NCBI GenBank assembly: GCA_022574495.1
Contig: JACZRW010000001.1
Coordinates: 1-52,549 of the forward strand
DNA length: 52,549 nucleotides
Reading direction: 5' to 3'
Source of the DNA: Patescibacteria group bacterium
GTDB taxonomy: Bacteria; Patescibacteriota; Microgenomatia; Woykebacterales; RBG-16-39-9b
Under the pieces are notes generated by a model. The model had not been told where the DNA came from, did not search any database, and saw nothing but the letters and a program-made list of their open reading frames with translations. Shown piece after piece: positions 3,584-41,135 of the stretch (position 1 is the first letter of the stretch; every line of letters starts with the position of its first letter). Made by a program: the position numbers and the translations under genes.

Positions 3584-3610
3584 CTAGCGGACTGAAGTTA
3601 CGAGTGCGAA
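3584..3610 (+). promoter_or_regulatory. Degenerate CIRCE-like inverted repeat just downstream of the groES -10 box
   Basis: CTAGCGGAC-N9-GAGTGCGAA compared with the CIRCE consensus TTAGCACTC-N9-GAGTGCTAA. The right half matches 8/9, the left half only 5/9. Confidence 0.3.
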
Positions 3611-3615
3611 TTTTT
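3594..3615 (+). repeat. 22-nt element GAAGTTACGAGTGCGAATTTTT; a perfect reverse-complement copy lies at 41114-41135
   Basis: Checked base by base. The reverse complement of 3594-3615 equals AAAAATTCGCACTCGTAACTTC at 41114-41135. Confidence 0.9.
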
Positions 3616-6122: not shown

Positions 6123-6203
6123 AGAAAGTGAGGGGAGGGGGCGGACCTTTTGTGCAACAGCACAACTGGTTCGCCTTTTCCATTTCTAACCATAAATTTT
6201 TGA
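6123..6203 (+). repeat. Direct repeat copy 1 (terminator plus -35 module); partner at 7541-7621
   Basis: The two 81-nt copies align by hand with about four-fifths identity and three 1-2-nt indels. Weaker similarity continues to about 6256 and 7655. Confidence 0.85.
6140..6181 (+). terminator. Intrinsic terminator after the 93-aa ORF
   Basis: GGCGGACC...GGTTCGCC outer stem with an inner TTGTGC-AACA-GCACAA hairpin, followed by TTTTCC. Confidence 0.65.
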
Positions 6204-6409
6204 AAAACTTTAAGTCTTCTTTTTGACAAATCCCCTTCCCCTATTTCCCTAAGATGTTAGCTATGGTATATATAATGTACTGGAAGTAAGGCAACCGATC
6301 GCATAGTGATAAAGTTGGGAGGTAATCGCACTCTAACAATTAAACAACCCATGAAAGGTAGAGAGAGGAGGAAACAACGTGAGAAGGTCACATAGAGGAG
6401 GTGTGCCGG

Positions 6410-7489
6410 ATGGTTAGCGATACGTCGCAAGACCGTACGGTTCGAGGGAAGCCGAGCCATCCTTCGACCCAACCACAGACCCCGCCGTCCTCGGGCAGCG
6501 GGACTATGCAGAGCTAAAGCGTCGTATCGTCGCTGCGGGCCTGCTCGAAAAACAGCCGGGCTACTATGTCTTCAACGCGTCCGTCCGGCTGATGCTCCTG
6601 GCCACCAGCATTTTGTTCTTGTTCATCATCGACAACGTCTGGCTACAGATGCTAAACGCGGTGTTCCTGGCCTTCGCCTCCACACAGATCGGCTATCTTG
6701 GCCATGACGCCGGCCACCGGCAGATCTTCAGCGGCGCGCATCGTAACGACGTCTTCGGGCTGGGGATCAACTTCTTGCTCGCCATCAGCCGCACTTGGTG
6801 GGTTGATACCCACAACGAACACCACGTGGACCCCAATGACCTAGATTACGACCCACATACGAGGTTGCCTATCTTCGTCTTCTCCGATGAACAGGCCCTC
6901 AACAAGGAAGGGCTCCCAGCCCGCATCGTCGGCTATCAGAGTTTCTACTTCTTCCCCATCCTACTCCTAGAGTACTTGGGGGCGCGCCTGGCGAGCGTTC
7001 AGTTATTGTTGGCGGGGGAGGTGAAGGGGAAGTCGTGGGAAGCACTGGCGATGGTCCTCCACTTCGCCGTCTACTTCGGCCTGCTGTTCTACGCGCTTAG
7101 CTGGTGGCACGCGGTGCTCTTCATTGTCGTACACCAGTCGCTGCAGGGGCTCTACATGGGCTCCGTCTTTGCGCCAAACCACAAAGGCATGCCGACGTTC
7201 AACCCGTGAGGACAACATCGATTTCTTCCGCAGGCAGGTTCTGACGAGCCGCAACATCGTTGGGAATCCGATTGCCGACTTCTGGTATGGCGGGCTCAAT
7301 TACCAGATTGAGCATCACCTGTTCCCGAGCATGCCGCGGAACAAGCTGAGGAAGGCTCAGCCTATCGTGAAAGCATTCTGTGAGGAGCGCTCCGTCTCCT
7401 ACGCCGAGTGTAGCGCCTTCCGCTCGAATGTCTTGATCCTTCGGTACTTGCACCGAGTGAGTGCATCGCTACGACCACGTACAACTTAA
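6410..7489 (+). pseudogene. Membrane fatty-acid desaturase, disrupted by at least two frameshifts
   Basis: SD AGAGGAGGT plus ATG at 6410, in a frame that stops at 6517. The frame opening at 6418 carries DYAELKRRIVAAGLLEKQPGYY, HDAGH and HNEHH and stops at 7207-7209. The third His box QIEHHLFPSMPRNKL continues in the other frame (7208-7489). Confidence 0.75.
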
Positions 7490-7540
7490 GAGGCGCAGCA
7501 CCATCGGAAAGATAACTTCTGGTGAGAAAAGCGAGAGAGT

Positions 7541-7621
7541 AGAAAGTGAGGGGGAAACAGGCGGACCTTTGTGTGAAAGCACAACTGGTCCGCCTTTTCC
7601 ATTTCTACCCTAAATTTTTGA
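7541..7621 (+). repeat. Direct repeat copy 2 (terminator plus -35 module); partner at 6123-6203
   Basis: See 6123-6203. Confidence 0.85.
7560..7600 (+). terminator. Intrinsic terminator after the desaturase pseudogene
   Basis: GGCGGACC...GGTCCGCC followed by TTTTCC. Confidence 0.65.
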
Positions 7622-7646
7622 CAAAACCCTACCCAACCTTTAAAAT
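7618..7646 (+). promoter_or_regulatory. Promoter of the 7656 hydrolase gene
   Basis: TTGACA (7618-7623)-N17-TAAAAT (7641-7646). The ATG follows 9 nt later and there is no SD, so the mRNA is near-leaderless. Confidence 0.5.
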
Positions 7647-15328: not shown

Positions 15329-15402
15329 TGGAGGCGACGAGCGGATTCGAACCGCCGTAAAAGGTTTTGCAGACCTCTACCTAGCCACTCGGTCACGTCG
15401 CC
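15329..15402 (-). tRNA. tRNA-Cys (GCA), with encoded CCA
   Basis: Minus-strand read: GGCGACG TG ACC GAGTGGCTA GGT A GAGGT CTGCAAA ACCTT TTAC GGCGG TTCGAAT CCGCT CGTCGCC T CCA. The acceptor stem has 7 perfect pairs and the anticodon loop is CU-GCA-AA. Confidence 0.85.
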
Positions 15403-15480
15403 CCAGTTTGAGCCTAGATTATAGCATATGAACTTAAAAAGATAAAACATTAATCGTGGATACCTTGTAACCTATAGTGG

Positions 15481-15509
15481 TTGACTTTCAGTTAGAAATG
15501 TGTTAGAAT
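15481..15509 (+). promoter_or_regulatory. Near-consensus promoter driving island B
   Basis: TTGACT (15481-15486)-N17-TAGAAT (15504-15509) with a TGT extended -10, preceded by CCTATAGTGG. Confidence 0.6.
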
Positions 15510-15516
15510 CTAGGTT

Positions 15517-15919
15517 CTAAATAAGGCACGAATAAAGAAATATTGTACGTGGAATTTTTAGTTCTTTTGAGCTAAGGATTTTAGTTGCAAGATTTATTTT
15601 AGGTATTTTGCTCCTTAAAAACTCCTTACTTGAGTTACGTAATCATGAACAACTCGTGGTTACTTACCTCGAGTGAGGTTCGCGAGAGCGGTAAAAAATA
15701 TAGTTATACATTCAAAAGAAAGGATGGTAAGCGATACATGCACTAAGAGGCCAAAACCACCAGATCCGGTAGCGAGCATCCCTGCTCTACAAGAATGGTC
15801 TCCCTTCGGAGAGGCAAGTCCGTAATCTAACAACGGGCGGAGCAGGGAGGGTTTTAGTCCCTTCGGGGATACCCTGCTCATGATGCGCATAACATCAACC
15901 GGAGAAGGAGGAATTTGCC
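15517..15919 (+). promoter_or_regulatory. ~400-nt 5' leader of the helicase gene; A+T-rich first third, then G+C-rich and structured
   Basis: No convincing ORF. A UUCG-loop hairpin (CCC-TTCG-GGG) and a second small hairpin (TCTCC-CTTC-GGAGA). GAGCAGGG (15840-15847) is complementary to two identical CCCTGCTC copies (15780-15787 and 15872-15879). Confidence 0.4.
15659..15674 (+). repeat. Left-edge copy of an imperfect direct repeat bounding island B
   Basis: GTTACTTACCTCGAGT compared with GTTACTCAC-TCGAGT at 19009-19023. Both lie at the composition switch. Confidence 0.4.
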
Positions 15920-18900
15920 TTGGATGGCATTCTACCAATCTCCCAGTACCGTGAGTACATAGTGCAAACGGTGCGAGACAACCAGGTTACAATCTTGGTT
16001 GGTGAGACAGGTAGCGGCAAAACCACACAAGTTCCGGTGTATCTTCTGGATGCTGGCTTCGGTCAGCGAGGACGCATCGGAATCACCCAACCTCGACGTC
16101 TAGCTGCCACTTCGGTGGCCGAGTACGTCGCGGATCGTATGGGTTGCCGAGTAGGCGAAGAAGTGGGTTATCAGATCCGCTTCGACGACACTACGACTGA
16201 GGGTACTCGGATCAGTTTCATGACTGACGGCATACTTCTGCAGGAAGCAAAGAGCGACCCGCTCTTCTCTCGTTATGAAGTTTTGGTGTTTGATGAAGCA
16301 CACGAGCGCAACCTCAACACCGACTTTGGTCTTGGTTTGGTCAAGCACGCCCTCAACACGCGAGATGACCTGAAGGTCGTTATCATGTCGGCCACAATCG
16401 ACGCCGATAAGTTCTCCGCCTTTTTCGGCGGGGCACCGATCATTAACGTCGAAGGTAAGACGTACCCAGTTGAGGTGCGCTACCTCGATGCGGTCGACGA
16501 GCAAGACGCGCAGGACCTCTTCATGGACCGTTCCATTGAGGCCCTCGCCGCCTTCAAGGTTGGTCAGATCCACCGCTCTGGCAAGCCGGGAGACATCCTG
16601 GTCTTCATGCCAGGGAAGGATGAGATCTACAAAACCATCCGATTAATTGAACAACTGCATCACCAAGACCTGCACACCCTAGCAGTTTACGGGGACATGA
16701 CGCCTCAGGAACAGCGTCGAATTTTCGACCGGTTTTCTGGACGAAAGGTGATCGTAGCTACCAACATTGCCGAGACCAGCATTACCATAGACGGCGTCGT
16801 GCACGTTGTCGACAGCGGGCTCATCAAGCAGATGAACTTTGACCCCAACACAGGGATCAGGTCTTTAAGCGTGACTGAGCACTCAAAGTCTGGTCTTGCG
16901 CAGCGACTTGGTCGAGCTGGACGCACCCAACCTGGTGTGTGTTGGCGGCTTTTCCTCTCTGAGGAGTACGAGACAGGCCGTCTTCCCTACCAGGGATGGA
17001 GCAAGAAGCAGCGCGATCAATTCACCAAACCAGAAATCCTGCGTACTGACCTAGCTGGTGTTGTCCTTCGGATGATCGGCATCGGTATCACCGACGTCGA
17101 GAGTTTCGAGTTTGTGGATATGCCAGTCGCTGGGGCAATCCATAACGCTTACGAAGCTCTCAAGGCTCTCGAGGCGTTGAACGAGGACAACCAGATCACC
17201 ACTCTTGGCCATCGGTTGCTTGATCTTCCGGTTGAGCCAAGAATCGGTCGAATGATCCTTGCCGCTGAGGACTACGGCTGTGCTGACGAGATTGTCACCA
17301 TCGCCGCCAGCCTTTCGGTGCGAGACGTCTTCCGACGTCCCAGGGACAAGGAGCTTGAAGCTGATGCAGCCAAAGCCCGCTTCACTGACCCAAGGAGCGA
17401 CTTCCTCACCACCCTCAACGTGGTTGAGCAGTATCTCGCTAACCAGGGTATAAGGGAGTGGACACAAGACAACTTCCTGAACTATCGAGCTTTGGAACAA
17501 CTCCTCAACATCCGTGGACAGCTCTTGGAAATCCTCGAGCGACTGCGTGTTGAGGTAGCATCGGTTGGGTATCGCAAACCCAAAGATCGATTCGACCCCA
17601 GTCCGGAGGAAAAGGCCCAAGCTGAAGCAATTGGTAAGGCCGTGACCGCGGGCTTGATTCAGAACCTTTCAATTCTCCGCAGGGGTGTGGACTACGTCCG
17701 CAACGGTGATCTAGTTCGCATCCACCCCGGTAGTGGTCTTTTCAGTGAGCTACCTCGCCTTCTTACCTGCGATAGTATCGTGAAAACGAAAACCCGCAAA
17801 AGCGGCATGATGAACTTCGCCAGAAGTTGTCAAGAGGTAGAACTTCCCTGGGTGGAGGAGATTGCCCCCCATCTACTGAAGACGGAGGTTGAAACGACGC
17901 CGTCCTGGAGCTACTCTCCAGAGGAAGGATACGTATACCAACGTCGAACGTACCTGGCCGGTGTCGAGATCTCCAGCGAGTCCACCCCTGCAAAGGGACC
18001 GGAAGTGGTACGGAAGTTTGCCGAGGATCTAGCCAACGAGCAAAGGTTCCTTAGCTTCATCAACCACAACCAGCAGGTCATGTACAGACTCGAGACAATT
18101 TATAGGGCAAGTGGCGGAATAACCAAGCTTCTTACCCGAGAAGAGCTCACTGAATTTTATGTCGAGCGGCTTGGGGACGCTACCACTAAAGCCGAATCCG
18201 AAGAGAAGAATCTGCAACTGAACCTCGATGACTACGTGTCTGCTGAGGAGAGGAAGCAGTACGGGTCAGAGCGACCGTCGCTGGTGTCTCAAGCAAGGGC
18301 CAGAATTTCCGATTTGGCGACAACCTTGCGAAAGGAAAGTCCGAAGGAACTCGATGAATTTACCAAAAACAAAATCGAGGACCTAAGGAAACGTCTAGAC
18401 GCCATGTCGTTGGACCCCAAAGAGTGGGGTTTCCAGTCTGGTTGGAACGGTAGTAGCCAGATCCGTTCCCTTTTGGGAGATCTACGCTCAGCCGAGGATA
18501 ATCTTCGGTGGGATCAGGAGACAGAGGCAGCTCGTGCAAAGATAGATTCTGTTCGCAGTTCTGTCGAGCGCCATGAGGAGCTGCACCAGCGAAGGCTGGA
18601 ACGACAAGCAAGAAAAGCGGAGGAGGAGCGGCAGGCCGAAGAGGAGCGCAGACAGCTTCAGCAGGAGGAGGAAGGATATAAGGAGTACGAGACAGCGCTA
18701 GTAGCGCTGAAGGCGAAGGCAGGAAGTTGGCCTGGCTTCGGTACCTATCAGTTCCCGTTCAACGCAAATGGTGATCCTGAGGATTATCTCCAAGACGGGT
18801 TTACCCACACGTTGGATTGGGATCACACTGAGGTGCTACCGGACGAGAACGAGTCTTATTGGGGCTTCGTTACTCAGACAATTCCACAAAATGGCGGTGG

Positions 18901-18964
18901 AACAATCAGAAAGATTGCTCTGCTACTGGAAGTCCGAAGCAAACCAGCTCACCTGTCTGACTAG
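15920..18964 (+). CDS. DEAH/RHA-box ATP-dependent helicase (HrpA-like) with a long C-terminal extension
   Basis: TTG start 8 nt after AAGGAGGA. GETGSGKTTQ (motif I), DEAHER (II), SAT (III), QRLGRAGR (VI). About 350 C-terminal residues include an EEERQAEEERRQLQQEEE charged helix. Line 16081-16140 has 35 G+C of 60. Confidence 0.85.
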   Translation: MDGILPISQYREYIVQTVRDNQVTILVGETGSGKTTQVPVYLLDAGFGQRGRIGITQPRRLAATSVAEYVADRMGCRVGEEVGYQIRFDDTTTEGTRISFMTDGILLQEAKSDPLFSRYEVLVFDEAHERNLNTDFGLGLVKHALNTRDDLKVVIMSATIDADKFSAFFGGAPIINVEGKTYPVEVRYLDAVDEQDAQDLFMDRSIEALAAFKVGQIHRSGKPGDILVFMPGKDEIYKTIRLIEQLHHQDLHTLAVYGDMTPQEQRRIFDRFSGRKVIVATNIAETSITIDGVVHVVDSGLIKQMNFDPNTGIRSLSVTEHSKSGLAQRLGRAGRTQPGVCWRLFLSEEYETGRLPYQGWSKKQRDQFTKPEILRTDLAGVVLRMIGIGITDVESFEFVDMPVAGAIHNAYEALKALEALNEDNQITTLGHRLLDLPVEPRIGRMILAAEDYGCADEIVTIAASLSVRDVFRRPRDKELEADAAKARFTDPRSDFLTTLNVVEQYLANQGIREWTQDNFLNYRALEQLLNIRGQLLEILERLRVEVASVGYRKPKDRFDPSPEEKAQAEAIGKAVTAGLIQNLSILRRGVDYVRNGDLVRIHPGSGLFSELPRLLTCDSIVKTKTRKSGMMNFARSCQEVELPWVEEIAPHLLKTEVETTPSWSYSPEEGYVYQRRTYLAGVEISSESTPAKGPEVVRKFAEDLANEQRFLSFINHNQQVMYRLETIYRASGGITKLLTREELTEFYVERLGDATTKAESEEKNLQLNLDDYVSAEERKQYGSERPSLVSQARARISDLATTLRKESPKELDEFTKNKIEDLRKRLDAMSLDPKEWGFQSGWNGSSQIRSLLGDLRSAEDNLRWDQETEAARAKIDSVRSSVERHEELHQRRLERQARKAEEERQAEEERRQLQQEEEGYKEYETALVALKAKAGSWPGFGTYQFPFNANGDPEDYLQDGFTHTLDWDHTEVLPDENESYWGFVTQTIPQNGGGTIRKIALLLEVRSKPAHLSD

Positions 18965-28652: not shown

Positions 28653-28782
28653 GAGTGAGATTATACCATTTAGGTTGAAATAGATAACATCGAACTCGAC
28701 GAGAAACCCTAGCGCAAGCTGTATAAGCGGCTTTAGTTGCTTTTAGCAACACAGGATTCTAACGAAGTGAATCCTATAGTAC

Positions 28783-28811
28783 TTGACTTTTAGGCTGTTT
28801 TCTGCTATAAT
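28783..28811 (+). promoter_or_regulatory. Consensus promoter driving island C
   Basis: TTGACT (28783-28788)-N17-TATAAT (28806-28811) with TGC extension, preceded by CCTATAGTAC. Confidence 0.6.
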
Positions 28812-29001
28812 ATAGGAGTACTTTAAGGTAAATATATACGTTACAAGTGAAGGCATCTTGTAACTGGATTGAATCTTCGCCCGCTACTTGGTATCTAACC
28901 AAGAAGCTATTATTCTCTCTGGTTACTAGGTGCCCTTTTAGGTATCTTGGAGAGTGCAGGCCAGAAGAGTCTGTGTTCTTGTATCAAAGTAGGAGGTAAA
29001 G

Positions 29002-29343: not shown

Positions 29344-29551
29344 CCTCAAACCTCGTCTGCTCTGACGCGACGGAAAAATAAGTTCAGAGAATGTGCGCGG
29401 TGCTGAGACTTTGTTGAAGCACAACAAGCGTGCGGGCTGGAGGGGAAATGTTCGGCAACGAACCTCTTCTCCTCCAGTTAATAAGGTTGCAATGACTTGG
29501 CTCCACGTGCCGCAGCTGGATAACCAACTAAAAGTCAATAAATTGGAAATG

Positions 29552-32536: not shown

Positions 32537-32548
32537 AAAGGATCTGTC

Positions 32549-32845
32549 ATGAGCTTAGCGGAGAAGGTGACATTAGTCATCTGGCTCGCCGTCATTGGTT
32601 TGATGCCAATAGCAGAGATCGCAGGAAATAACACGCTGAACCTGATCTTGCTGCTGCTTTTCTGGGCGATTAGCCTAGTAGTCTCGGTGCCTTTCATCAG
32701 GTCTACGTGGAGCCGGTCAAGTAATCGAAAACTAGGGCTCATACCCTTCACTATTGGATGGTTCGCAGTGGTGATGAGTGGAGCATTGGTGTTACTGCTG
32801 ATTTCTCCAAAGCGTCGGGAAATTGAGGAAGGGAGGCTGCCATGA
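32549..32845 (+). CDS. Small 3-TM membrane protein, 98 aa (island D, ORF1)
   Basis: G+C-rich ORF starting 12 nt after the rmuC stop. Three hydrophobic helices. Confidence 0.5.
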   Translation: MSLAEKVTLVIWLAVIGLMPIAEIAGNNTLNLILLLLFWAISLVVSVPFIRSTWSRSSNRKLGLIPFTIGWFAVVMSGALVLLLISPKRREIEEGRLP

Positions 32846-32937
32846 CCGAATGGTTGACGGCCACGATATTCTTCACCCTCTACCTGGCTGGAATAACTGT
32901 GTTAAGAAGGTGGGTGGCTAAGCACCTAAGTTGGTAG
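32842..32937 (+). CDS. 31-aa single-TM peptide (island D, ORF2)
   Basis: Not in the track (<60 aa). ATGA start/stop overlap with ORF1. MTEWLTATIFFTLYLAGITVLRRWVAKHLSW. Confidence 0.35.
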   Translation: MTEWLTATIFFTLYLAGITVLRRWVAKHLSW

Positions 32938-32950
32938 AAAGGAGGCTGAT

Positions 32951-33265
32951 ATGGTGGAGAAATTGCCAACACTAGCTGTCTACCTTGGTTTTCTCATGGT
33001 AGGAGCGCTAATGTGGGCCATTTTGGTAATGTACGGCATCGAAGACTTTTGGGTATTGGCGACGATTTCAATATCTACAGTCTGGATGTTAGGCGCAGTT
33101 ATCACTTGGTTCATCCTCTGTCTGCATGACCGGGCAGTAGATGGCAGATGGAGCATCCTTAGGGATTTGTATGCCAAGGCCTGGACGAGTGGCTTTTGGT
33201 TCATCACCTTCCCACAACTGGATCTCGAAGTGAGGAACCAGGAGATGAATGAAGCCGGCCAGTAA
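32951..33265 (+). CDS. Small 3-TM membrane protein, 104 aa (island D, ORF3)
   Basis: AAAGGAGG SD 5 nt upstream. Hydrophobic helices and a Trp-rich sequence. Confidence 0.5.
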   Translation: MVEKLPTLAVYLGFLMVGALMWAILVMYGIEDFWVLATISISTVWMLGAVITWFILCLHDRAVDGRWSILRDLYAKAWTSGFWFITFPQLDLEVRNQEMNEAGQ

Positions 33266-33285
33266 CCAGTACGACCTGTCCGCAA

Positions 33286-33323
33286 AACCGCCGTCTCCTC
33301 ATGAGCCGGCGGTTACCATTTTT
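33286..33323 (+). terminator. Intrinsic terminator closing island D
   Basis: AACCGCCG (33286-33293) pairs with CGGCGGTT (33307-33314), followed by ACCATTTTT. Confidence 0.6.
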
Positions 33324-33342
33324 GTGATAGAATTTGTTGACG

Positions 33343-36333
33343 ATGAAGGATAATTTGAAGGGTTTGAATAAAGCTCAGAAAGTGGCGGTAACTACTACCG
33401 AAGGTCCCCTACTAATTATTGCTGGCGCCGGAACTGGGAAGACTATGGTTATCACCCACCGCATCGCCCGTATTATTAAGAAAAAACTTGCTAAACCTTC
33501 CGAAATTTTGGCTCTTACTTTTACCGAAAAAGCCGCCGGAGAAATGGAAGAAAGAGTAGACGTGCTGGTTCCCTACGGCTATATAGATACTTGGATTTCC
33601 ACTTTTCACGCTTTTGGAAATAAAGTACTGCAAGAAAATGCTATCGATCTAGGCCTTCCACCAGATTATCGGGTGATGACCCGCCCGCAACAAGTTCTCT
33701 TTTTCCAACAAAATCTTTTCGCCTTCGATCTTTCTTATTATCGACCCCTCTCCAACCCAACCAAATTTATTGAAGCCATCCTATCTTTTATAAGTCGGGC
33801 TAAAGATGAAGATATTTCTCCAGAGCAATACCTAGCCTATGTGAAAAAGCTAAAAAAGACCTCTCCAGCAAAGCTAGATTTATCTAAAGAAGAATTCAAA
33901 ACAGAAATAAAGAGACAAGAGGAACTAGCTAACACTTATAAAAAATACGAAGATTTAAAAGAAAAAAATGGGCTTTTGGATTTTGGAGATCAAGTGGTAC
34001 TTACCCTGCGCCTTTTTAGGGACCGGCCGAAGATATTGAAAGAGTATCAAGAAAGATTTAAATATATTCTGGTAGATGAATATCAAGATACCAATTGGGC
34101 GCAGAATGAACTGGTAAAACTTTTGGCGAGTTATACAAAGAACATCTGTGTTGTGGCTGATGACGATCAATCTATCTATCGTTTTCGGGGGGCGGCGATA
34201 AGTAATGTTTTGGAATTTAAAAAAACTTACCCTAAAGCAAGAGTAGTTTCATTAATAGAAAATTACCGATCCACCCAACCACTGTTAGATAGTTCATACC
34301 GATTAATTAAGCATAATGATCCAGACCGTCTAGAGGTGAGAGAAAAAATAAGTAAGAAGCTTTTGGCAGTCCGTAAAAATAAAGGAAGAGGTCCTACTGA
34401 ATTATTTGCAGACACGTTGAGTGAAGAAGCCGATCTTGTAGCAAAAGAAATTGAAAATCTTACTCGGGGATTTCACCCAAAACAACCAGGAAAAAAAGCA
34501 GCTGGAAAGTATAGATCGCTTCGTGGGCTAAATTATCGAGATATCGCGATTTTGGTGCGAGCTAATTCTCAAGCCGATCCATTTTTACGTTCACTTAATA
34601 TGAAAGGAATCCCTCACAAATTTGTTGGTTCTTCCGGACTTTATAATCAGCCAGAAGTAAAACTTTTGATTTCCTACCTTTCCGCGATATCAAATTTTGA
34701 CGATAGTTTAAATCTATACAACCTTGCATCATCTGAAATTTATAAACTACCTATTGAGGATGCAATTACCGCTATGGATTTTGCAAAAAAGAGAAGTAAA
34801 ACTTTACGAAATGTGTTTGAAAAAATTGCAGACGGTGATGAAGAAGTGACAGTCAGTGAGGAAGGGATGGTAATAATAGAAAAAATTATTAACGATTTAA
34901 AAGCCGCGGCCGAGCTTTCCAAAAAAGAAAATGTGGGCCGGGTGCTTTATGATTTTTTAAAAGACACCGGTTATTTATCTCGACTAGAAAGAGAAGGGAG
35001 CATCGATTCGGAAATTAAGGTTCAAAATATTTCTAGATTTTTCGATAAAATAAAAGAGTTTGTAGATCTTGTTCAAAATGAATCTACCCGCGCGTTTGTG
35101 GATTACCTAGAGACGATGAGAGGAGTGGGAGATGATCCAGCTACGGTGGAATTTGATCCAGACTTGGACGCGGTAAATGTAATGACTGTACATTCTGCCA
35201 AAGGATTAGAATTTCCGGTGGTTTTTCTCGTAAATCTAGTGGCTGATCGTTTTCCTTCTCGGCAACGTGGCGACCCGATCCCTCTACCAGATGATTTAAT
35301 AAAAGAAACTTTACCAGCCGGAGACTTTCACATGCAAGAGGAAAGAAGGCTTTTTTACGTAGGGATGACTAGAGCCATGGATCGACTATATTTTTCCTGG
35401 GCCAGGGATATGGGTGGAAAAAGGATCAAAAAAGTCTCTCCTTATGTGTTAGAAAGTCTTGATAAGATAGAGTCAATTGCAAAATTAGTAAAATTATCTG
35501 CGGTTGAAAAAATTAAGCAGTTTGCCCCAGTAGAAAAGAAAAATTATAAACTCCCCCAAGCCGACCAAAAAATAATCAAACTAACCCAAGGATCAATTGA
35601 TGATTACGAGACTTGTGCGTATAAATATCGCTACGCCCATGTATTACGTCTACCAATTCTTCGCCATCACGCCATAGTTTACGGTTTTGCTCTGCACGCC
35701 GCCGTCGCCGAATTTTACCGACAAAAAATGAATAGAAGAAAACCCACTCTAAAAAAATTACTTGAGGTTTTAGAAAATACTTGGGTTACCGAAGGATTTC
35801 TATCCGCCGAACACGAAGAAAATAGATTGGAGCAAGCCAAAAAGGTGCTGGAGAGTTTCTATAAAAGAGAAAAGGATAAAAAAGAACTGCCAAAATTTAT
35901 TGAGAAAAATTTCCGTTTTAGTGTTGGTGATGTGTTGGTTACCGGGAGATTTGATCGTGTCGACGTTGAAGGGAACAAAGTTCGTGTTATCGATTTTAAA
36001 TCTAGTGAAAATCGTTCCCTGGAACAATTAGAAAAAGATGCAAAGAGTAGTGTGCAGCTGAGAATATATGCGTTGGGTTATTATAAAAGTTATGGAGTGA
36101 TACCAAAGTTTGTAGGGATTTATGATTTAGAGTCTGGACTTATCGGTGGTTATGAACCCACAAAAGAAGTGATGAAAAAGACAGAAGAGGAAGTGGTGGA
36201 GGTGGCCAGAAACGTACGTGGGGATCTACAAAACGATGCGTTCGTTGCCAATCCAAAGTATTTCGGCCGCCTCCCCGCCTGTTACTACTGTCCATACAGT
36301 AGTATATGCCCATTCTCACTAGCCAAAGGTTAA
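33343..36333 (+). CDS. UvrD/PcrA-type superfamily-1 helicase fused to a C-terminal PD-(D/E)XK (Cas4/AddB-like, 4-Cys) nuclease
   Basis: AGAGTGKT, VDEYQDTN, YRS, VMTVHSAKGLEFPVV. C-terminus has GRFDRVD...VIDFKSS...QLRIYALGY plus C-x(n)-CYYCPYSSIC. TGaTAGAAT box lies 9 nt before the ATG at 33343. Confidence 0.85.
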   Translation: MKDNLKGLNKAQKVAVTTTEGPLLIIAGAGTGKTMVITHRIARIIKKKLAKPSEILALTFTEKAAGEMEERVDVLVPYGYIDTWISTFHAFGNKVLQENAIDLGLPPDYRVMTRPQQVLFFQQNLFAFDLSYYRPLSNPTKFIEAILSFISRAKDEDISPEQYLAYVKKLKKTSPAKLDLSKEEFKTEIKRQEELANTYKKYEDLKEKNGLLDFGDQVVLTLRLFRDRPKILKEYQERFKYILVDEYQDTNWAQNELVKLLASYTKNICVVADDDQSIYRFRGAAISNVLEFKKTYPKARVVSLIENYRSTQPLLDSSYRLIKHNDPDRLEVREKISKKLLAVRKNKGRGPTELFADTLSEEADLVAKEIENLTRGFHPKQPGKKAAGKYRSLRGLNYRDIAILVRANSQADPFLRSLNMKGIPHKFVGSSGLYNQPEVKLLISYLSAISNFDDSLNLYNLASSEIYKLPIEDAITAMDFAKKRSKTLRNVFEKIADGDEEVTVSEEGMVIIEKIINDLKAAAELSKKENVGRVLYDFLKDTGYLSRLEREGSIDSEIKVQNISRFFDKIKEFVDLVQNESTRAFVDYLETMRGVGDDPATVEFDPDLDAVNVMTVHSAKGLEFPVVFLVNLVADRFPSRQRGDPIPLPDDLIKETLPAGDFHMQEERRLFYVGMTRAMDRLYFSWARDMGGKRIKKVSPYVLESLDKIESIAKLVKLSAVEKIKQFAPVEKKNYKLPQADQKIIKLTQGSIDDYETCAYKYRYAHVLRLPILRHHAIVYGFALHAAVAEFYRQKMNRRKPTLKKLLEVLENTWVTEGFLSAEHEENRLEQAKKVLESFYKREKDKKELPKFIEKNFRFSVGDVLVTGRFDRVDVEGNKVRVIDFKSSENRSLEQLEKDAKSSVQLRIYALGYYKSYGVIPKFVGIYDLESGLIGGYEPTKEVMKKTEEEVVEVARNVRGDLQNDAFVANPKYFGRLPACYYCPYSSICPFSLAKG

Positions 36334-36356
36334 ACATAAATATTAACCCATAGTAC

Positions 36357-36385
36357 TTGACAAGTGGGTAATTTTGTGGTATACT
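36357..36385 (+). promoter_or_regulatory. Consensus promoter driving island E
   Basis: TTGACA (36357-36362)-N17-TATACT (36380-36385) with TGG extension, preceded by CCCATAGTAC. Confidence 0.6.
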
Positions 36386-36669
36386 ATATGTATATTTACG
36401 AAGCTAATAAAGTAAGTTCATTTAGCTTCAATACAGGGGTAATTTAAGTTCAAAGGGAAGATTGAGAGGGACTTTTTTGTACTTTGAAAATTATGTACTA
36501 TAAGATAATAGACGTATCTTGCGTTCTGTGAATTAAAGAAGCTGAGTAACTTTCACTAGGCGACTGATGCCTGGATAGAGTTTTCAGGTGTGAGTGTTTG
36601 CCCATCTTAGGTGGTTAAGCACTCCCATCTGGGAGCGAGGATCGGTCAGAAGACAAGGAGGTCAAAGCA

Positions 36670-36846
36670 ATGAGCGGGTTGCAGCTAGCATGGGATGTGT
36701 ATGGAGATGGAAAAGTCTCGAGGCAAAAGGCTTTCGAGGGGTCTTCGTCGTCACGCTCTCGTCAAGCCCGTCTTAGCCGAAAGGTAACCCCGCGGGATTT
36801 GCGCCCAAGTCGAGAAAGGGACGGGGTGAGGAAATTCCAGCGGTAA
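36670..36846 (+). CDS. Possible 58-aa Arg/Ser-rich basic peptide inside the island E transcript
   Basis: Not in the track (<60 aa). AAGGAGGT (36655-36662) lies 7 nt before the ATG. MSGLQLAWDVYGDGKVSRQKAFEGSSSSRSRQARLSRKVTPRDLRPSRERDGVRKFQR. Confidence 0.3.
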   Translation: MSGLQLAWDVYGDGKVSRQKAFEGSSSSRSRQARLSRKVTPRDLRPSRERDGVRKFQR

Positions 36847-37094
36847 AGACTATTCAGAGCAAGGAGAGGAGGTGGTTGCAATTCATAGTTAGCAATCACT
36901 AGCAGATCTTCGTTGGGGGCGCGTAAGTAGGTTAATTCCGAAAAAGCGCGCCTCCTCCCAACTCTTAAAGATTTGGCCCGTAAGTGATTACGGGATTTAA
37001 AAAGAAAAGGAGGTGAATATTACTCCCTACCGCTTAGGGCCAAATTTTTGAGGGTTAGGAAAAGTAACACCAGTTAACTAGTTAATAAAAATCT

Positions 37095-37136
37095 GGCTCG
37101 GAATGGACGAAAATCCACTCTGGGCTAGTTTTTTTT
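37095..37136 (+). terminator. Intrinsic terminator closing island E
   Basis: GGCTCGGAATGGA-CGAAAA-TCCACTCTGGGCT, then AG and 8 T. Three G-U pairs make the stem valid only on the plus strand. Confidence 0.6.
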
Positions 37137-38008
37137 CAAAAAAATCTATTTAAAGAAAATATTAATTTTACTATTGGGTTGTAATATTTTACAAATGATC
37201 CTAGATAAGTAACTTCTTTTCCGCCAAAACCTCTTTTGAAATGAGTAAACCCCGCCCATTTTTTAGTAGCTTTTATTCTAGGATCTATAATTCCTTCAAA
37301 ATCGAATTCTTTATAACCTTTTTCTTTAGAAAGTTTTATTGCCTCCCAAACTACTAAATAAGGTGCTAAAAGTTCTCGGTTTTGCTTGGAAGATGCCGCT
37401 TCATAATAATAAGCTTTATTGTCGTAAAACATTAGAAATGCTCCAGCCAAAATGGCCTTATTCTTTTTTGCAAACAAAATCATTTTATTCTCACTGGGCA
37501 AAGAATTCCAAAGAAGTTTGGATTCTCTTTCTGAAGTCCAAAAACCCTTACGCTTAGAAGTTTCTTTGTGAAGTTTCAAAAATTTGTCAATATCAAGGGA
37601 TTTTTCTACTACCACCCCTTCCCGAACTGACCTCCTTATACTATAGCGAGTGTCTTTCTCCATATTTTTCAATAGCATTTCTTCAGGAGGGTTTAAGTCA
37701 ATAACGATTGTCTTTGTTGGCTGAAGACCCCAACTATCAATCTGAAACTTATTTGATTTTAATTCCGTCAATATTTTTTCGTCGCCAACACTAGAATTGG
37801 TTTCTAGCTTTACAAAAAACGCCCCTTCTTTCTTAGCAACCTTGTCAATTTTGCTAAAGGGTATTTTTGATTCTATTCTAGGAACTTTTATTAATGATCC
37901 AAAAGGAATTTTTCTGATAAAGATTTTCCTTGAATCCGTATCTACCGTTTTCCAGCCAAGTTTTTCCAAATATATCTGCCAATAATCGGATTGGCGTATA
38001 TCGGTCAT
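37136..38008 (-). CDS. FemAB-family peptidoglycan interpeptide-bridge aminoacyltransferase
   Basis: 290 aa. WQIYLEKLGW, KDTRYSIRR, AYYYEAASS and FDFEGI resemble the FemX/FemAB GNAT pair. Confidence 0.75.
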   Translation of the reverse strand: MTDIRQSDYWQIYLEKLGWKTVDTDSRKIFIRKIPFGSLIKVPRIESKIPFSKIDKVAKKEGAFFVKLETNSSVGDEKILTELKSNKFQIDSWGLQPTKTIVIDLNPPEEMLLKNMEKDTRYSIRRSVREGVVVEKSLDIDKFLKLHKETSKRKGFWTSERESKLLWNSLPSENKMILFAKKNKAILAGAFLMFYDNKAYYYEAASSKQNRELLAPYLVVWEAIKLSKEKGYKEFDFEGIIDPRIKATKKWAGFTHFKRGFGGKEVTYLGSFVKYYNPIVKLIFSLNRFF

Positions 38009-38039
38009 AATGGATTAATTTTAACACGTCGTTCATGTC

Positions 38040-38089
38040 ATTCTGAATTAATTTCAGAATCTCTGTTGATCCTGAATCAAGTTCAGGAT
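38040..38089. promoter_or_regulatory. Two tandem related palindromes upstream of femAB
   Basis: ATTCTGAA-TTAAT-TTCAGAAT (38040-38060) and ATCCTGAA-TCAAG-TTCAGGAT (38069-38089). Confidence 0.4.
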
Positions 38090-38121
38090 GACTTCTAAGT
38101 TACTTTAAATCTAGGGAAAAA

Positions 38122-38790
38122 TTAATTTTTGAGTATATATAAATCAGTTTGTCTAGAGCTCCACCAGCCCGTTTTTATGCTATCAAACCCAAGATCTATC
38201 ACGTTTCCTTTGATTGCCCCACCCGTATCCCCAGCGATAGCGATTCCATACCCAGGTACATATACTTTAGAACCAAGGGGAATTACTTGTGGATCCACAG
38301 CAATCACACCATACCCTGCTTTTAAACCTAACGCGGTGGTGCCACTACACCCGTAACAGGTGGAGTCGTAGGACGTTGCAAAAACCGAAAGTTTCTTAGT
38401 GTATTTTAAGGTTCCTTGAGGAGTCTTTATACTTCCTGGTTTTGAAGGTTCTACGAATATAGATGTTTGAAAAGATATTGGGGGTTGGTTGGAAGGATTT
38501 TTTATAATGTTATTAACGGAATTATTTTTAGCTGGTGGTTTTTTTAGTATTGTTTTTTCTGTGTCCAGCGGACCGACGCCAGCATTCAGGTGAGGAAGAT
38601 TGCTCAGTGAAGATTCTACAAGAGATTTAGTTGTATCTATAGATGTTAAGCTGGTTTGAGCAATGAGGGCTGCGGAGATTAAGAAAAAGCTGCCAATATA
38701 TTTCGATGGAATTCTGGCTACCACGAGAGTAGATATAGATTTTGTAGTATAGAGAGATTCACTCATCCAGCCTGCCAGCGGTTTGAGCAT
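38122..38790 (-). CDS. 3D-domain (MltA/YabE-like) cell-wall protein
   Basis: C-terminal ATSYDSTCYGCSGTTALG...VIAVDPQVIPLGSKVYVPGYG..IAGDTGGAIKGNVIDL is the 3D-domain signature. Confidence 0.7.
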   Translation of the reverse strand: MLKPLAGWMSESLYTTKSISTLVVARIPSKYIGSFFLISAALIAQTSLTSIDTTKSLVESSLSNLPHLNAGVGPLDTEKTILKKPPAKNNSVNNIIKNPSNQPPISFQTSIFVEPSKPGSIKTPQGTLKYTKKLSVFATSYDSTCYGCSGTTALGLKAGYGVIAVDPQVIPLGSKVYVPGYGIAIAGDTGGAIKGNVIDLGFDSIKTGWWSSRQTDLYILKN

Positions 38791-41113: not shown

Positions 41114-41135
41114 AAAAATTCGCACTCGTAACTTC
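41114..41135 (-). repeat. Reverse-complement copy of the 22-nt groES-leader element
   Basis: AAAAATTCGCACTCGTAACTTC equals the reverse complement of 3594-3615. Confidence 0.9.

Follow-up and report, generated by a model that had tools for sequence, protein, structure and literature searches.

A conserved RNA frame with a Shine-Dalgarno-like hairpin loop surrounds exchangeable small-protein genes in a Woykebacteria-like genome

Introduction

The locus described here raises the question of what a GC-rich and strongly folding interval, with no long protein gene of its own, contributes to the genome of an uncultivated bacterium. Within the stretch of 52,549 nucleotides that was analyzed (the window), this interval, termed island E (36347-37136), lies between two stop codons, that of a plus-strand gene for a 999-aa UvrD-helicase/PD-(D/E)XK-nuclease (33334-36333) and that of a convergent FemAB-family gene on the minus strand (37136-38008), the stop codon of which abuts the terminator of island E (both genes from the list of open reading frames, ORFs, and Pfam). 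The GC content of the island is 45-53%, compared with ~37% in the background. A sequence-only reading had taken it for a single non-coding RNA of ~745 nt. Comparison with related genomes upholds the structured-RNA part of that proposal for a leader (~36392-36478) and a tail (~36945-37136) and not for the middle, where a 58-codon ORF has homologues and shows coding evolution and where the central ~470 nt are a replaceable cassette.

The comparative data establish a discrete unit, bounded by a promoter and a terminator of its own, that holds a real gene, in which cassettes have been swapped inside a conserved scaffold and in which the scaffold includes a covarying hairpin. We consider it somewhat better than an even proposition that this unit is a small-protein mRNA set in a conserved scaffold that would serve its expression and stability and dock 30S ribosomal subunits, and that its ORFs are exchanged by recombination.

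Results

Relatives compared and extent of the unit

The helicase of the window is 80% identical to that of L016, a Candidatus Woykebacteria genome assembled from a metagenome, and 60-76% identical to those of other Woykebacteria-like and Curtissbacteria assemblies (loci of relatives are given as L numbers and their proteins as P numbers). Judged by these sequences, the host of island E is a Candidatus Woykebacteria-like genome; Candidatus Woykebacteria are uncultivated members of the Candidate Phyla Radiation (CPR). The window's own proteins had no record in exact look-ups, so that the comparisons are independent of the window's own record. Both ends of island E have homologues directly 3' of the helicase gene in L016 and L001, and weaker matches to the ends are found in L002, L003, L004, and L015 (BLASTN and nhmmer), while Curtissbacteria loci have an ordinary 174-aa gene at this position instead. 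A metagenome scan anchored on the helicase C-terminus, the patterns of which were too generic, gave a best match of only 54% identity.

The plus strand of island E folds with -260.9 kcal/mol (z = -6.3) versus -184.7 kcal/mol (z = -3.5) for the minus strand, in agreement with the discrete, highly structured plus-strand unit that had been proposed. It is also true that the unit matches no class that was looked for (RNase P, tmRNA, SRP, 6S, group I/II introns, GOLLD, ROOL, OLE, or raiA): Rfam 15 at gathering thresholds gave a single match in the whole window, a tRNA at 15332-15402, the best hit to 36200-37300 at E <= 10 was a plant miRNA model (23.6 bits versus a threshold of 211), and ARAGORN found no tmRNA. 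Two viral-contig scans with the conserved tail sequences gave 0 matches and a phage origin was set aside, these scans and PHROG both being empty.

A 58-codon ORF that evolves as a protein gene

The small-protein gene of the window, designated type A, encodes 58 aa rich in arginine (36670-36846, plus) and was recognized from homologues, synteny, and coding pattern. Its Shine-Dalgarno (SD) sequence, AAGGAGGU (36655-36662, plus), lies 7 nt 5' of the ATG, is conserved in alignments, and is predicted to be accessible, with a mean unpaired probability of 0.74 versus 0.35 for the whole transcript. Just 5' of this ribosome-binding site the minimum free energy (MFE) fold has a hairpin of ~20 bp (36585-36631, plus), which moves with the type-A cassette and persists in L165, L166, and L159 although some of its pairs have changed. 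A word-indexed protein search with the ORF gave no match and a full HMMER scan, of 1.84 billion representative proteins, was needed; it returned full-length matches to P0001 (55 aa, 1.7e-8), P0003 (55 aa, 4.4e-7), and P0004 (63 aa, 4.0e-6). A fourth homologue from a profile search, P0007, is an ORF in L040 (tblastn 44% over 43 aa, E = 4e-6), and the homologues span 54-63 aa. At the P0001 and P0003 loci the helicase-nuclease gene and the small ORF are followed by FemAB, 3D-domain, and UvrD genes on the other strand; P0004 and P0007 are on short contigs that bear the same flanking RNA sequence or the helicase end.

Among five divergent sequences (55-62% nucleotide identity) the start and stop codons are kept and indels are multiples of three. 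In all ten pairwise comparisons codon position 3 is the most variable, position 1 is at least as variable as position 2, and the proportion of nonsynonymous differences (pN 0.29-0.46) is lower than that of synonymous ones (pS 0.56-0.92). Given the full-length homologues, the synteny, the substitution pattern, and the accessible SD, we conclude that the 58-codon ORF is a real gene; on this comparative evidence it would also serve as the translated small protein expected of a dual-function RNA. As a correction to the claim that no ORF of 60 codons or more looks real, an overlapping 60-codon GTG ORF does exist (36594-36776), but it is broken by a stop in L166.

The 58-aa protein matches no Pfam, PHROG, or PADLOC entry, and a sequence search of the PDB gave only a compositional match to eL29 (E = 0.13). 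Its residues 6-33 (36685-36768; AWDVYGDGKVSRQ, WDVYGDGKVS) match the repeated WD(V/A)NGDGKVT calcium-loop-like motifs of the large repeat proteins P0002, P0005, and P0006 (E = 7e-8 to 6e-4). An EF-hand-like reading of this segment was rejected; the motif is absent from the other members of the small-protein family and the likeness is probably due to chance.

The ORF lies in an exchangeable cassette

The cassette (36479-36944, plus), delimited by its lack of alignment to L168, comprises the variable part of the leader, the small ORF, a post-ORF segment, and the 5' arm and loop of hairpin H-A (see below). The nucleotide identity of L168 to the window is 96.8% in the C-terminal half of the helicase gene, ~91% in the promoter and leader to ~36478, and ~99% in the tail from ~36945. 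Between these, ~370 nt of L168 are unalignable with the ~466-nt middle of the window and bear instead a 31-aa Cys-rich ORF (MPKWAKELLKMGLCPSCSTRIDPTGHCRCSK), of a type also present in L016 and, in a shorter form, in L169. The comparison of these two genomes demonstrates cassette replacement between near-identical strains.

Relatives that carry a type-A ORF point in the same direction. Relative to L165, nonsynonymous (dN) and synonymous (dS) divergence are 0.035 and 0.45 for the helicase, 0.025 and 0.26 for FemAB, and 0.37 and 1.0 for the small ORF, the dN of which is ten times that of the flanks; nucleotide identity is 62% in the ORF versus 84% in the tail. For L166 the corresponding identities are 55% and 97%, with ~200 identical bases counted in a row in the tail. 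The ORF dN to L165, which is a near relative (0.37), is like that to the distant L159 (0.38, with a helicase dN of 0.27), so the ORF alleles look older than the host genomes, which favors exchange over divergence in place.

At least five ORF types occur within the same scaffold across the relatives. These include a 55-57 aa family in L002 and L003 (E = 6e-5), peptides of 26-31 aa in L001 and L004, which are grouped tentatively on a resemblance seen by eye and not significant in tblastn, ORFs of 145 and 125 aa at the cassette position of L015, and a 40-aa ORF at that of L170 and L171. Every replacement cassette bears an SD-led small ORF, and none of the relatives' cassette ORFs has a Pfam, PHROG, or PADLOC match. 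In six relatives a strong SD followed by an AUG and a mini-ORF of 2-5 codons lies between the main small ORF and the SD-loop hairpin (L168:2866-2880, L002:9999-10013, L016:9382-9390, L001:9999-10013, L003:9691-9699, and L169:3062-3070), the peptides being MSWP, MTWP, MK, MKRK, MT, and MR, each ended by a stop codon. The window-type cassette has an SD-like box at 36866 and the invariant AUUCAUAG but no AUG mini-ORF.

More widely, the helicase-FemAB interval of the relatives is a general hotspot for GC-rich genes of Arg-rich small proteins. Additional small proteins are encoded just 3' of the unit at L159:5506-6012 and L003:9933-10271; they share an Arg-rich C-terminal motif, QRGR(S/D)RVPK...RG.GRHSR, and matched no known family.

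A shared promoter module and a conserved leader

The unit begins with a sigma-70-type promoter, TTGACA-17-TATACT with a TG extension (36357-36385, plus), which scores 11/12. The near-consensus promoter that had been noted is thus confirmed as the best in 35500-38500, and its position is conserved in every relative; from its sequence the start site would be at ~36392. Directly 5' of the -35 hexamer is the motif CCCATAGTAC (36347-36356, plus), possibly an operator or a UP-like part of the promoter module. It belongs to the direct-repeat family D1, with copies in the window at 15471, 28773, and 36347, and CCYATAGT occurs at only these three sites in the whole window. The full module, CCYATAGTNNTTGAC-N17-TAnnnT, heads three GC-rich islands of the window (15471-15521, 28773-28823, and 36347-36397), of which the first holds a gene for a 1014-aa DEAH/HA2 helicase behind a ~400-nt leader, the second a 113-aa ORF, and the third is island E. 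It also heads the unit in L165, L159, L001, L004, L015, L040, and L170. Copies in relatives are likewise present at L001:1262-1308, L170:3574-3607, and L167:1075-1112. Part of the motif forms a palindrome around the -35 hexamer (CCCATAG ... CTATGGG in L016 and L003), and the complement of the motif, ACTATAGG or GTACTATAAG, reappears ~100 nt into the leader (36495-36504). The shared module and the motif complement in the leader suggest that the three islands have a common regulator, possibly with two operator sites.

In L001 and L002 an inserted Trp-repressor-family helix-turn-helix (HTH) gene (PF01371; L001:9120-9563, minus, E = 3e-12, and L002:9054-9449, minus, E = 9e-14) separates the helicase gene from the unit and is divergent from the promoter of the latter. 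The HTH protein is a candidate regulator of the shared module; the 52.5-kb window has no copy of this gene.

The conserved leader (approximately 36392-36478, plus), defined by sequence conservation in relatives, runs from a hairpin at 36400-36429, in which GAAGCTAA (36400-36407) pairs with TTAGCTTC (36422-36429), through a purine-rich block at 36443-36472 (UUUAAGUUCAAAGGGAAGAUUGAGAGGGA) to a U-run, and its conserved sequence also includes UUUUUGUA...ACUAUA(A/G)G. Identity to L165 is 93% over 36340-36520, covering the promoter and the first part of the leader, and 73% in the second part. The leader can still be aligned in L016 and L001, even with synonymous sites saturated there, and is kept in L168 despite a different cassette. 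RNAalifold gave no consensus structure for the whole leader in six lineages and only a weak one in four lineages, so the leader is claimed here as conserved sequence and not as conserved structure.

The conserved tail

The tail of ~190 nt (~36945-37136, plus), delimited by alignments and by a consensus structure, is made up of hairpin H-A, the long hairpin H-B, a conserved linker, and the terminator. The consensus structure from five lineages has 52 pairs, nine of them with compensatory changes and many of them G-U. Leader and tail have 3-11 stop codons in every one of the six frames and are conserved at least to the extent of the neighboring genes, with parts of the tail exceeding even the neighbors' synonymous sites, and the tail can be aligned in L016 and L001 although dS is saturated there. 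From this pattern, leader and tail are clearly conserved non-coding RNA modules under purifying selection.

Conservation at type-A loci resumes at a second SD-like box, GAGGAGGUGG, which is followed by a small hairpin, GGUUGC...GCAAUC, that contains the invariant AUUCAUAG (36866-36897, plus). No ATG comes after this box, and it is mostly paired (unpaired probability 0.29). In H-A (36912-36962, plus, MFE fold) the 5' arm is G-rich (GUUGGGGG) and the 3' arm is C-rich and anti-SD-like (CCUCCUCCCAAC), the pairing being that of GTTGGGGGCGCG at 36912-36923 with CGCGCCTCCTCCCAAC ending at 36962. Its GGGGG/CCCCC base is a consensus helix in five lineages, the CCUCCUCC stretch has an unpaired probability of 0.02, and equivalents of H-A can be read in L002, L003, L004, L169, and L170. 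A hairpin in the 3' region of the 113-aa-ORF island (29436-29478; CUGGAGGGGAA...UUCUCCUCCAG) likewise has a G-rich arm and a CCUCC-containing arm, as in H-A, and no SD-loop hairpin comes after it.

The linker, GGAAAAGUAACACC... (37064-37092, plus), has almost the same sequence in L165, L166, L168, and L016 and is conserved in part in L001. It leads to the terminator (37093-37136, plus), where a 15-bp stem (37093-37107/37114-37128) with G-U pairs is followed by T8 (U8) at 37129-37136. The terminator was missing from the list of a simple scanner and was read directly from the sequence; it has the GC-containing stem and the U-run directly after it, on the transcribed strand, of an intrinsic terminator. 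The helix is a consensus with compensatory changes in five lineages, which bears out the plus-strand terminator that had been described, its G-U pairs being absent when the minus strand is read.

Hairpin H-B and its loop

H-B (36956-37063, plus), defined by a covariance model, has a 29-pair imperfect stem and a large loop with AAAAGGAGGUGA at 37005-37016. A long-range pairing joins ATTTGGCCC (36971-36979) to GGGCCAAAT (37037-37045), and a small hairpin, CCCGTA-AGTGAT-TACGGG, is at 36977-36994. All of the hairpins named in the sequence-only reading are in fact present, GGGCCAAAT being one base to the left of where it had been placed, as are the three AAGGAGG-type boxes (36655, 36861-36875, and 37005-37016), and the SD-like and anti-SD-like elements it drew attention to are the most conserved features of island E. 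In each of the 10 distinct lineages that were examined, AAAAGGAGGUGA(A/U) is enclosed in the loop of a long imperfect hairpin, and AAAAGGAGGUGA is invariant or near-invariant in all 10. The motif is enclosed by 20-46 pairs in ten loci versus 13.1 +/- 9.6 pairs in 400 random windows, 7% of which reach 29.

A covariance model, R1, was built from five sequences and it finds the unseen loci L003 (1.3e-7), L169 (3.8e-6), L004 (1.8e-5), L002 (1.9e-5), and L015 (0.08). Its matches are restricted to Woykebacteria-like loci and are always syntenic and on the plus strand; the search found a single copy in the window and none in 14 Curtissbacteria-like loci, and the score is 107.7 bits on the plus strand versus 31.8 on the minus strand. 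Across ten distinct sequences, 92.4% of the pair cells of H-B are canonical, compared with 70.8 +/- 1.8% (maximum 76%) in column shuffles, 28-57% with slid partners, and 82.1% for the helix read on the minus strand. Double changes are seen in 25 of the 29 pairs, against a shuffle mean of 13.1 and a maximum of 18. By these tests H-B is a conserved, covarying hairpin with an invariant SD-like loop.

The loop motif has an unpaired probability of 0.60, versus 0.35 overall, and the 52.5-kb window has a single exact copy of the 10-mer AAGGAGGTGA, which in 3.2 Mb of scanned loci is almost confined to H-B. The relatives' loci that were compared share neither a start codon nor a reading frame 3' of the motif. 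On the generally conserved 16S rRNA sequence, AAAAGGAGGUGA is an 11-12-nt complement of the 16S 3' tail. Its invariant bases are exactly those that pair with what we take to be the conserved bacterial 16S 3' end, 3'-UUUCCUCCACU-5', and the loop differences in L001 and L003 extend the complementarity (GGAGGUGAUC and GGAGGUGAUU). Past the SD, the loop region also bears some likeness to the reverse-complemented 16S 3' end (CCCTACCGCT), which L016 and L159 do not share and which was therefore discarded.

Other features of the window

A sponge for a CsrA/Rsm-like protein, which had been raised on the basis of GGA motifs, finds no support, since island E has 19 GGA versus 17.2 +/- 3.0 in dinucleotide shuffles, and 167 of 500 shuffles reach 19. 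Nor do island D and island E bracket the helicase gene as a pair; they are two separate variable GC-rich islands. Island D (32540-33320; ~49% GC) reads as a group of two or three short ORFs, among them those from 32550 and at 32951-33265, the products of which would be hydrophobic membrane-type proteins; a terminator-like hairpin lies after them at 33279-33325, and neither the shared promoter motif nor the tail hairpin was found in it. The position 5' of the helicase gene holds different genes in L159 and L165. The GajB matches of the helicase itself represent generic UvrD similarity, and it was not treated as part of a Gabija system; no search for a GajA partner was made.

Of the other islands, one at 15520-18964 (3.4 kb, ~55% GC) encodes the 1014-aa DEAH-box/HA2/OB helicase, which is HrpA-like, behind a ~400-nt GC-rich leader with several hairpins, its copy of the shared promoter module being next to tRNA-Cys (15329-15402). 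Direct repeats of 60 nt at 6149-6208 and 7568-7627 (82% identical, 1419 nt apart) flank an island of 54-60% GC with a 205-aa ORF that has a fatty-acid-desaturase domain (6592-7209), and the 6149-7627 segment looks like inserted foreign DNA with duplicated ends. The perfect 22-nt inverted repeat GAAGTTACGAGTGCGAATTTTT has its arms 37.5 kb apart, at 3594-3615 and 41114-41135.

Discussion

Proposed mechanism

We now put forward a mechanism in which the strong promoter with its conserved upstream motif would drive an RNA of ~745 nt composed of the conserved leader, the exchangeable cassette, and the ~190-nt tail that ends in the intrinsic terminator. This would be a single mRNA, the fixed ends of which supply transcription, translation context, and RNA stability. 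Unrelated small ORFs would be exchanged by homologous recombination, for which the conserved leader and tail would serve as homology arms. We further propose that the SD displayed by H-B docks 30S subunits via the 16S 3' tail, in the manner of a stabilizing SD (STAB-SD), and that docking determines how stable the transcript, or its 3' part, is or how it is processed.

Mechanistically, the nearest precedents are STAB-SD elements and other ribosome-dependent mRNA stabilizers, for example the Bacillus thuringiensis cry3A leader and the hbs mRNA of B. subtilis, which has ribosome-dependent protection from RNase J1 (PMC5737220). The H-B loop resembles them in being SD-like, with extended complementarity to the generally conserved 16S 3' end, and in starting no adjacent ORF. 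It differs in that the classical elements are single-stranded and are located in 5' untranslated regions (UTRs), while the island E copy is in the loop of a 29-pair hairpin and 3' of the ORF, 37005-37016 being 160 nt after the ORF stop and the box at 36866 also being after the ORF. This position is the chief mismatch with the precedent, and the ORF cannot be protected from there in the classical STAB-SD way. The protected species would better be taken as the tail itself, where conservation resumes at the second SD-like box (36866); this box is at the 5' edge of the tail, and a 30S subunit bound there could shield the tail from 5'-to-3' decay.

Several points weigh against the mechanism as a whole. 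A classical STAB-SD in a 5' UTR shields the RNA downstream of it from a 5'-exonuclease, which the H-B loop, being 3' of the ORF, cannot do for the small-protein gene. The 16S complementarity rests on general bacterial conservation and not on the 16S 3' end of this organism, the loci compared having yielded no rRNA, and the H-B covariation on about ten independent lineages in an alignment that was fitted to the model. L040 and L167 bear a type-A ORF without H-B, and hence the ORF is not strictly dependent on the tail, and the 58-aa protein has neither a family nor a predicted fold (AlphaFold2 predicted local distance difference test score of 57.7). Finally, it is from sequence that we infer transcription itself, the RNA ends, and translation, and likewise the recombination mechanism and 30S docking with its consequence.

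A bolder form of the same proposal is that island E is a lineage-specific RNA platform of the Woykebacteria, which captures the 16S 3' tail with a hairpin SD, by docking or titrating, and which is at the same time a fixed socket for small-protein genes exchanged by recombination. We regard this as doubtful. The platform may also be one member of a regulon of GC-rich islands under one operator-promoter module.

Alternative explanations

The tail, perhaps together with the leader, might instead act in trans as part of a dual-function RNA, the G-rich loop AAAGGAGGUGA pairing with C-rich partners. It could be a sponge for C-rich small RNAs, as RosA is for RoxS, or could titrate the anti-SD of 16S rRNA and so damp translation globally. 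The architecture parallels that of Staphylococcus aureus RNAIII, a 514-nt RNA with 14 stem-loops that includes a small ORF and is highly conserved in its 3' region (PMC12612679), in that, as in dual-function RNAs (RNAIII and also Pel, SR1, and SgrS), one strongly promoted structured transcript has a small ORF in its middle and, as in RNAIII, a 3' domain of conserved hairpins that ends in the terminator is the most conserved part (PMC12612679). Moreover, the scaffold is more conserved than the ORF and outlasts its replacement, the H-B loop is invariant while the stems covary, and G-rich sponge RNAs for C-rich small RNAs are known, B. subtilis RosA among them (PMC8216469), so that an exposed G-rich SD-like sequence could pair with C-rich regulatory RNAs. 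However, island E has no sequence or Rfam relationship to RNAIII, the loops of which are C-rich and target SD sequences whereas that of island E is itself G-rich and SD-like, and the RNAIII peptide is fixed whereas the ORF of island E is swapped between strains. Unlike RosA, island E has one motif per transcript, and sequence and organism are unrelated. There is a single copy, in the window and per locus, no C-rich partner or target was identified, and ribosome titration would require very high copy numbers. Conserved, covarying non-coding modules are compatible with activity at the RNA level without demonstrating it, and no feature separates a trans-acting from a cis-acting role; on balance a trans-acting RNA appears rather unlikely to us. 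Less probable again is that H-B is mainly an attenuator or first terminator, its inner stem being followed by AAAUUUUUG and ribosomes at the SD boxes or mini-ORFs tuning read-through. A scanner does list CCCTACCGCTTAGGG and CCAAATTTTT (37025-37049) as terminator-like, a U-run follows the inner stem in the window, L016, L003, L169, L002, and L170, the SD-AUG mini-ORFs are 5' of H-B in six loci, and L003, L004, L015, and L170 have further plus-strand ORFs 3' of it. Yet the window and its closest relatives have only the linker and the second terminator downstream and thus nothing to attenuate, L001, L004, and L015 are without the U-run, the downstream genes in L003 and L170 have their own promoters, the window-type cassette has no AUG mini-ORF, and a terminator has no need of an invariant 12-nt loop sequence.

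A large, purely non-coding structured RNA of a new class, with the 58-codon ORF incidental, would accord with the strong folding, the lack of an Rfam match, the ease with which chance ORFs arise in GC-rich sequence, and the replaceability of the ORFs. We nevertheless think it very improbable in view of the start, stop, and indel pattern kept in five sequences with pN below pS, the strong and accessible SD at the right spacing, the SD-led small ORFs in replacement cassettes as well, and an RNA middle that is not conserved between near-identical strains. A type I toxin-antitoxin-like or hok-like locus with an antisense RNA is brought to mind by the small ORF, the long structured untranslated regions, the strain-variable locus, and a minus-strand promoter-like site at 36532-36505, but this site is in a part that varies in L166, folding of the minus strand is far poorer, there is no PADLOC match, and the cassette proteins are Arg-rich or Cys-rich and none is hydrophobic or membrane-like, so that such a locus has very little probability in our estimation. 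Least credible of all is a DNA element, either an integron-like cassette with H-B as its attC-type site or a decayed protein gene. Integron cassettes are similar in that small promoter-proximal ORFs are exchanged, with a long imperfect hairpin after each, and in the window the imperfect palindrome of H-B is flanked by ...CCCAAC and GTTAGG. An attC site, however, has R'' RYYYAAC and R' GTTRRRY around a variable center and is served by an integrase, whereas the AAC...GTT core is not conserved here (L159 has CCAGC, and L003, L004, and L015 have unrelated stems), the loop is the conserved part, the G-U pairs favor a plus-strand RNA, no integrase was found in the window region or the relatives' loci (ORF lists and Pfam), and there is a single cassette and not an array. 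A degraded protein gene, which the sequence-only reading had named as its own possible undoing, is contradicted by the 3-11 stops per frame in leader and tail, given their high conservation that is not codon-like. As an insertion, island E is reminiscent of the phage 'morons', which are autonomous promoter-ORF-terminator insertions, in being self-contained, of deviant base composition, between conserved genes, and strain-variable in content; it differs in residing at a fixed syntenic position in a cellular chromosome and in having a constant scaffold in which only the ORF changes.

Significance

The essence of our proposal remains that of a small-protein mRNA within a conserved scaffold. The general kind to which it belongs is already known, namely structured mRNAs for small ORFs, or dual-function RNAs, that have an SD-like stabilizer. 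As far as Rfam 15 and the literature searched extend, leader and tail had no match and no description. Three features are new: the 12-nt anti-SD complement displayed by a hairpin 3' of the ORF, the fact that this complement is strictly conserved throughout a CPR lineage, and the replacement of one small ORF by an unrelated one within a fixed RNA frame. The element occurs in a single lineage; its anatomy is unusual and solid, and the mechanism is what we infer from it.

The CPR bacteria have tiny genomes and, to our knowledge, almost no characterized regulatory RNA. At minimum, the tail constitutes a new RNA motif for the family databases, one in which a hairpin loop that serves no gene holds 12 invariant nucleotides complementary to the anti-SD, and the locus is among the clearest cases of small-ORF swapping in a fixed RNA frame, in strains with a ~97% identical helicase gene. 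It also cautions that GC-rich structured islands with short ORFs should not be called non-coding. If the loop does dock 30S subunits, the STAB-SD idea would be extended to a structured 3' element, and the scaffold would represent a portable expression and stability module for organisms that are not yet engineerable; if the platform form of the proposal were true, this would be a system for exchanging small-ORF cassettes without an integrase. The strain-variable small proteins themselves are candidates for diversifying selection, for example in host or phage interactions.

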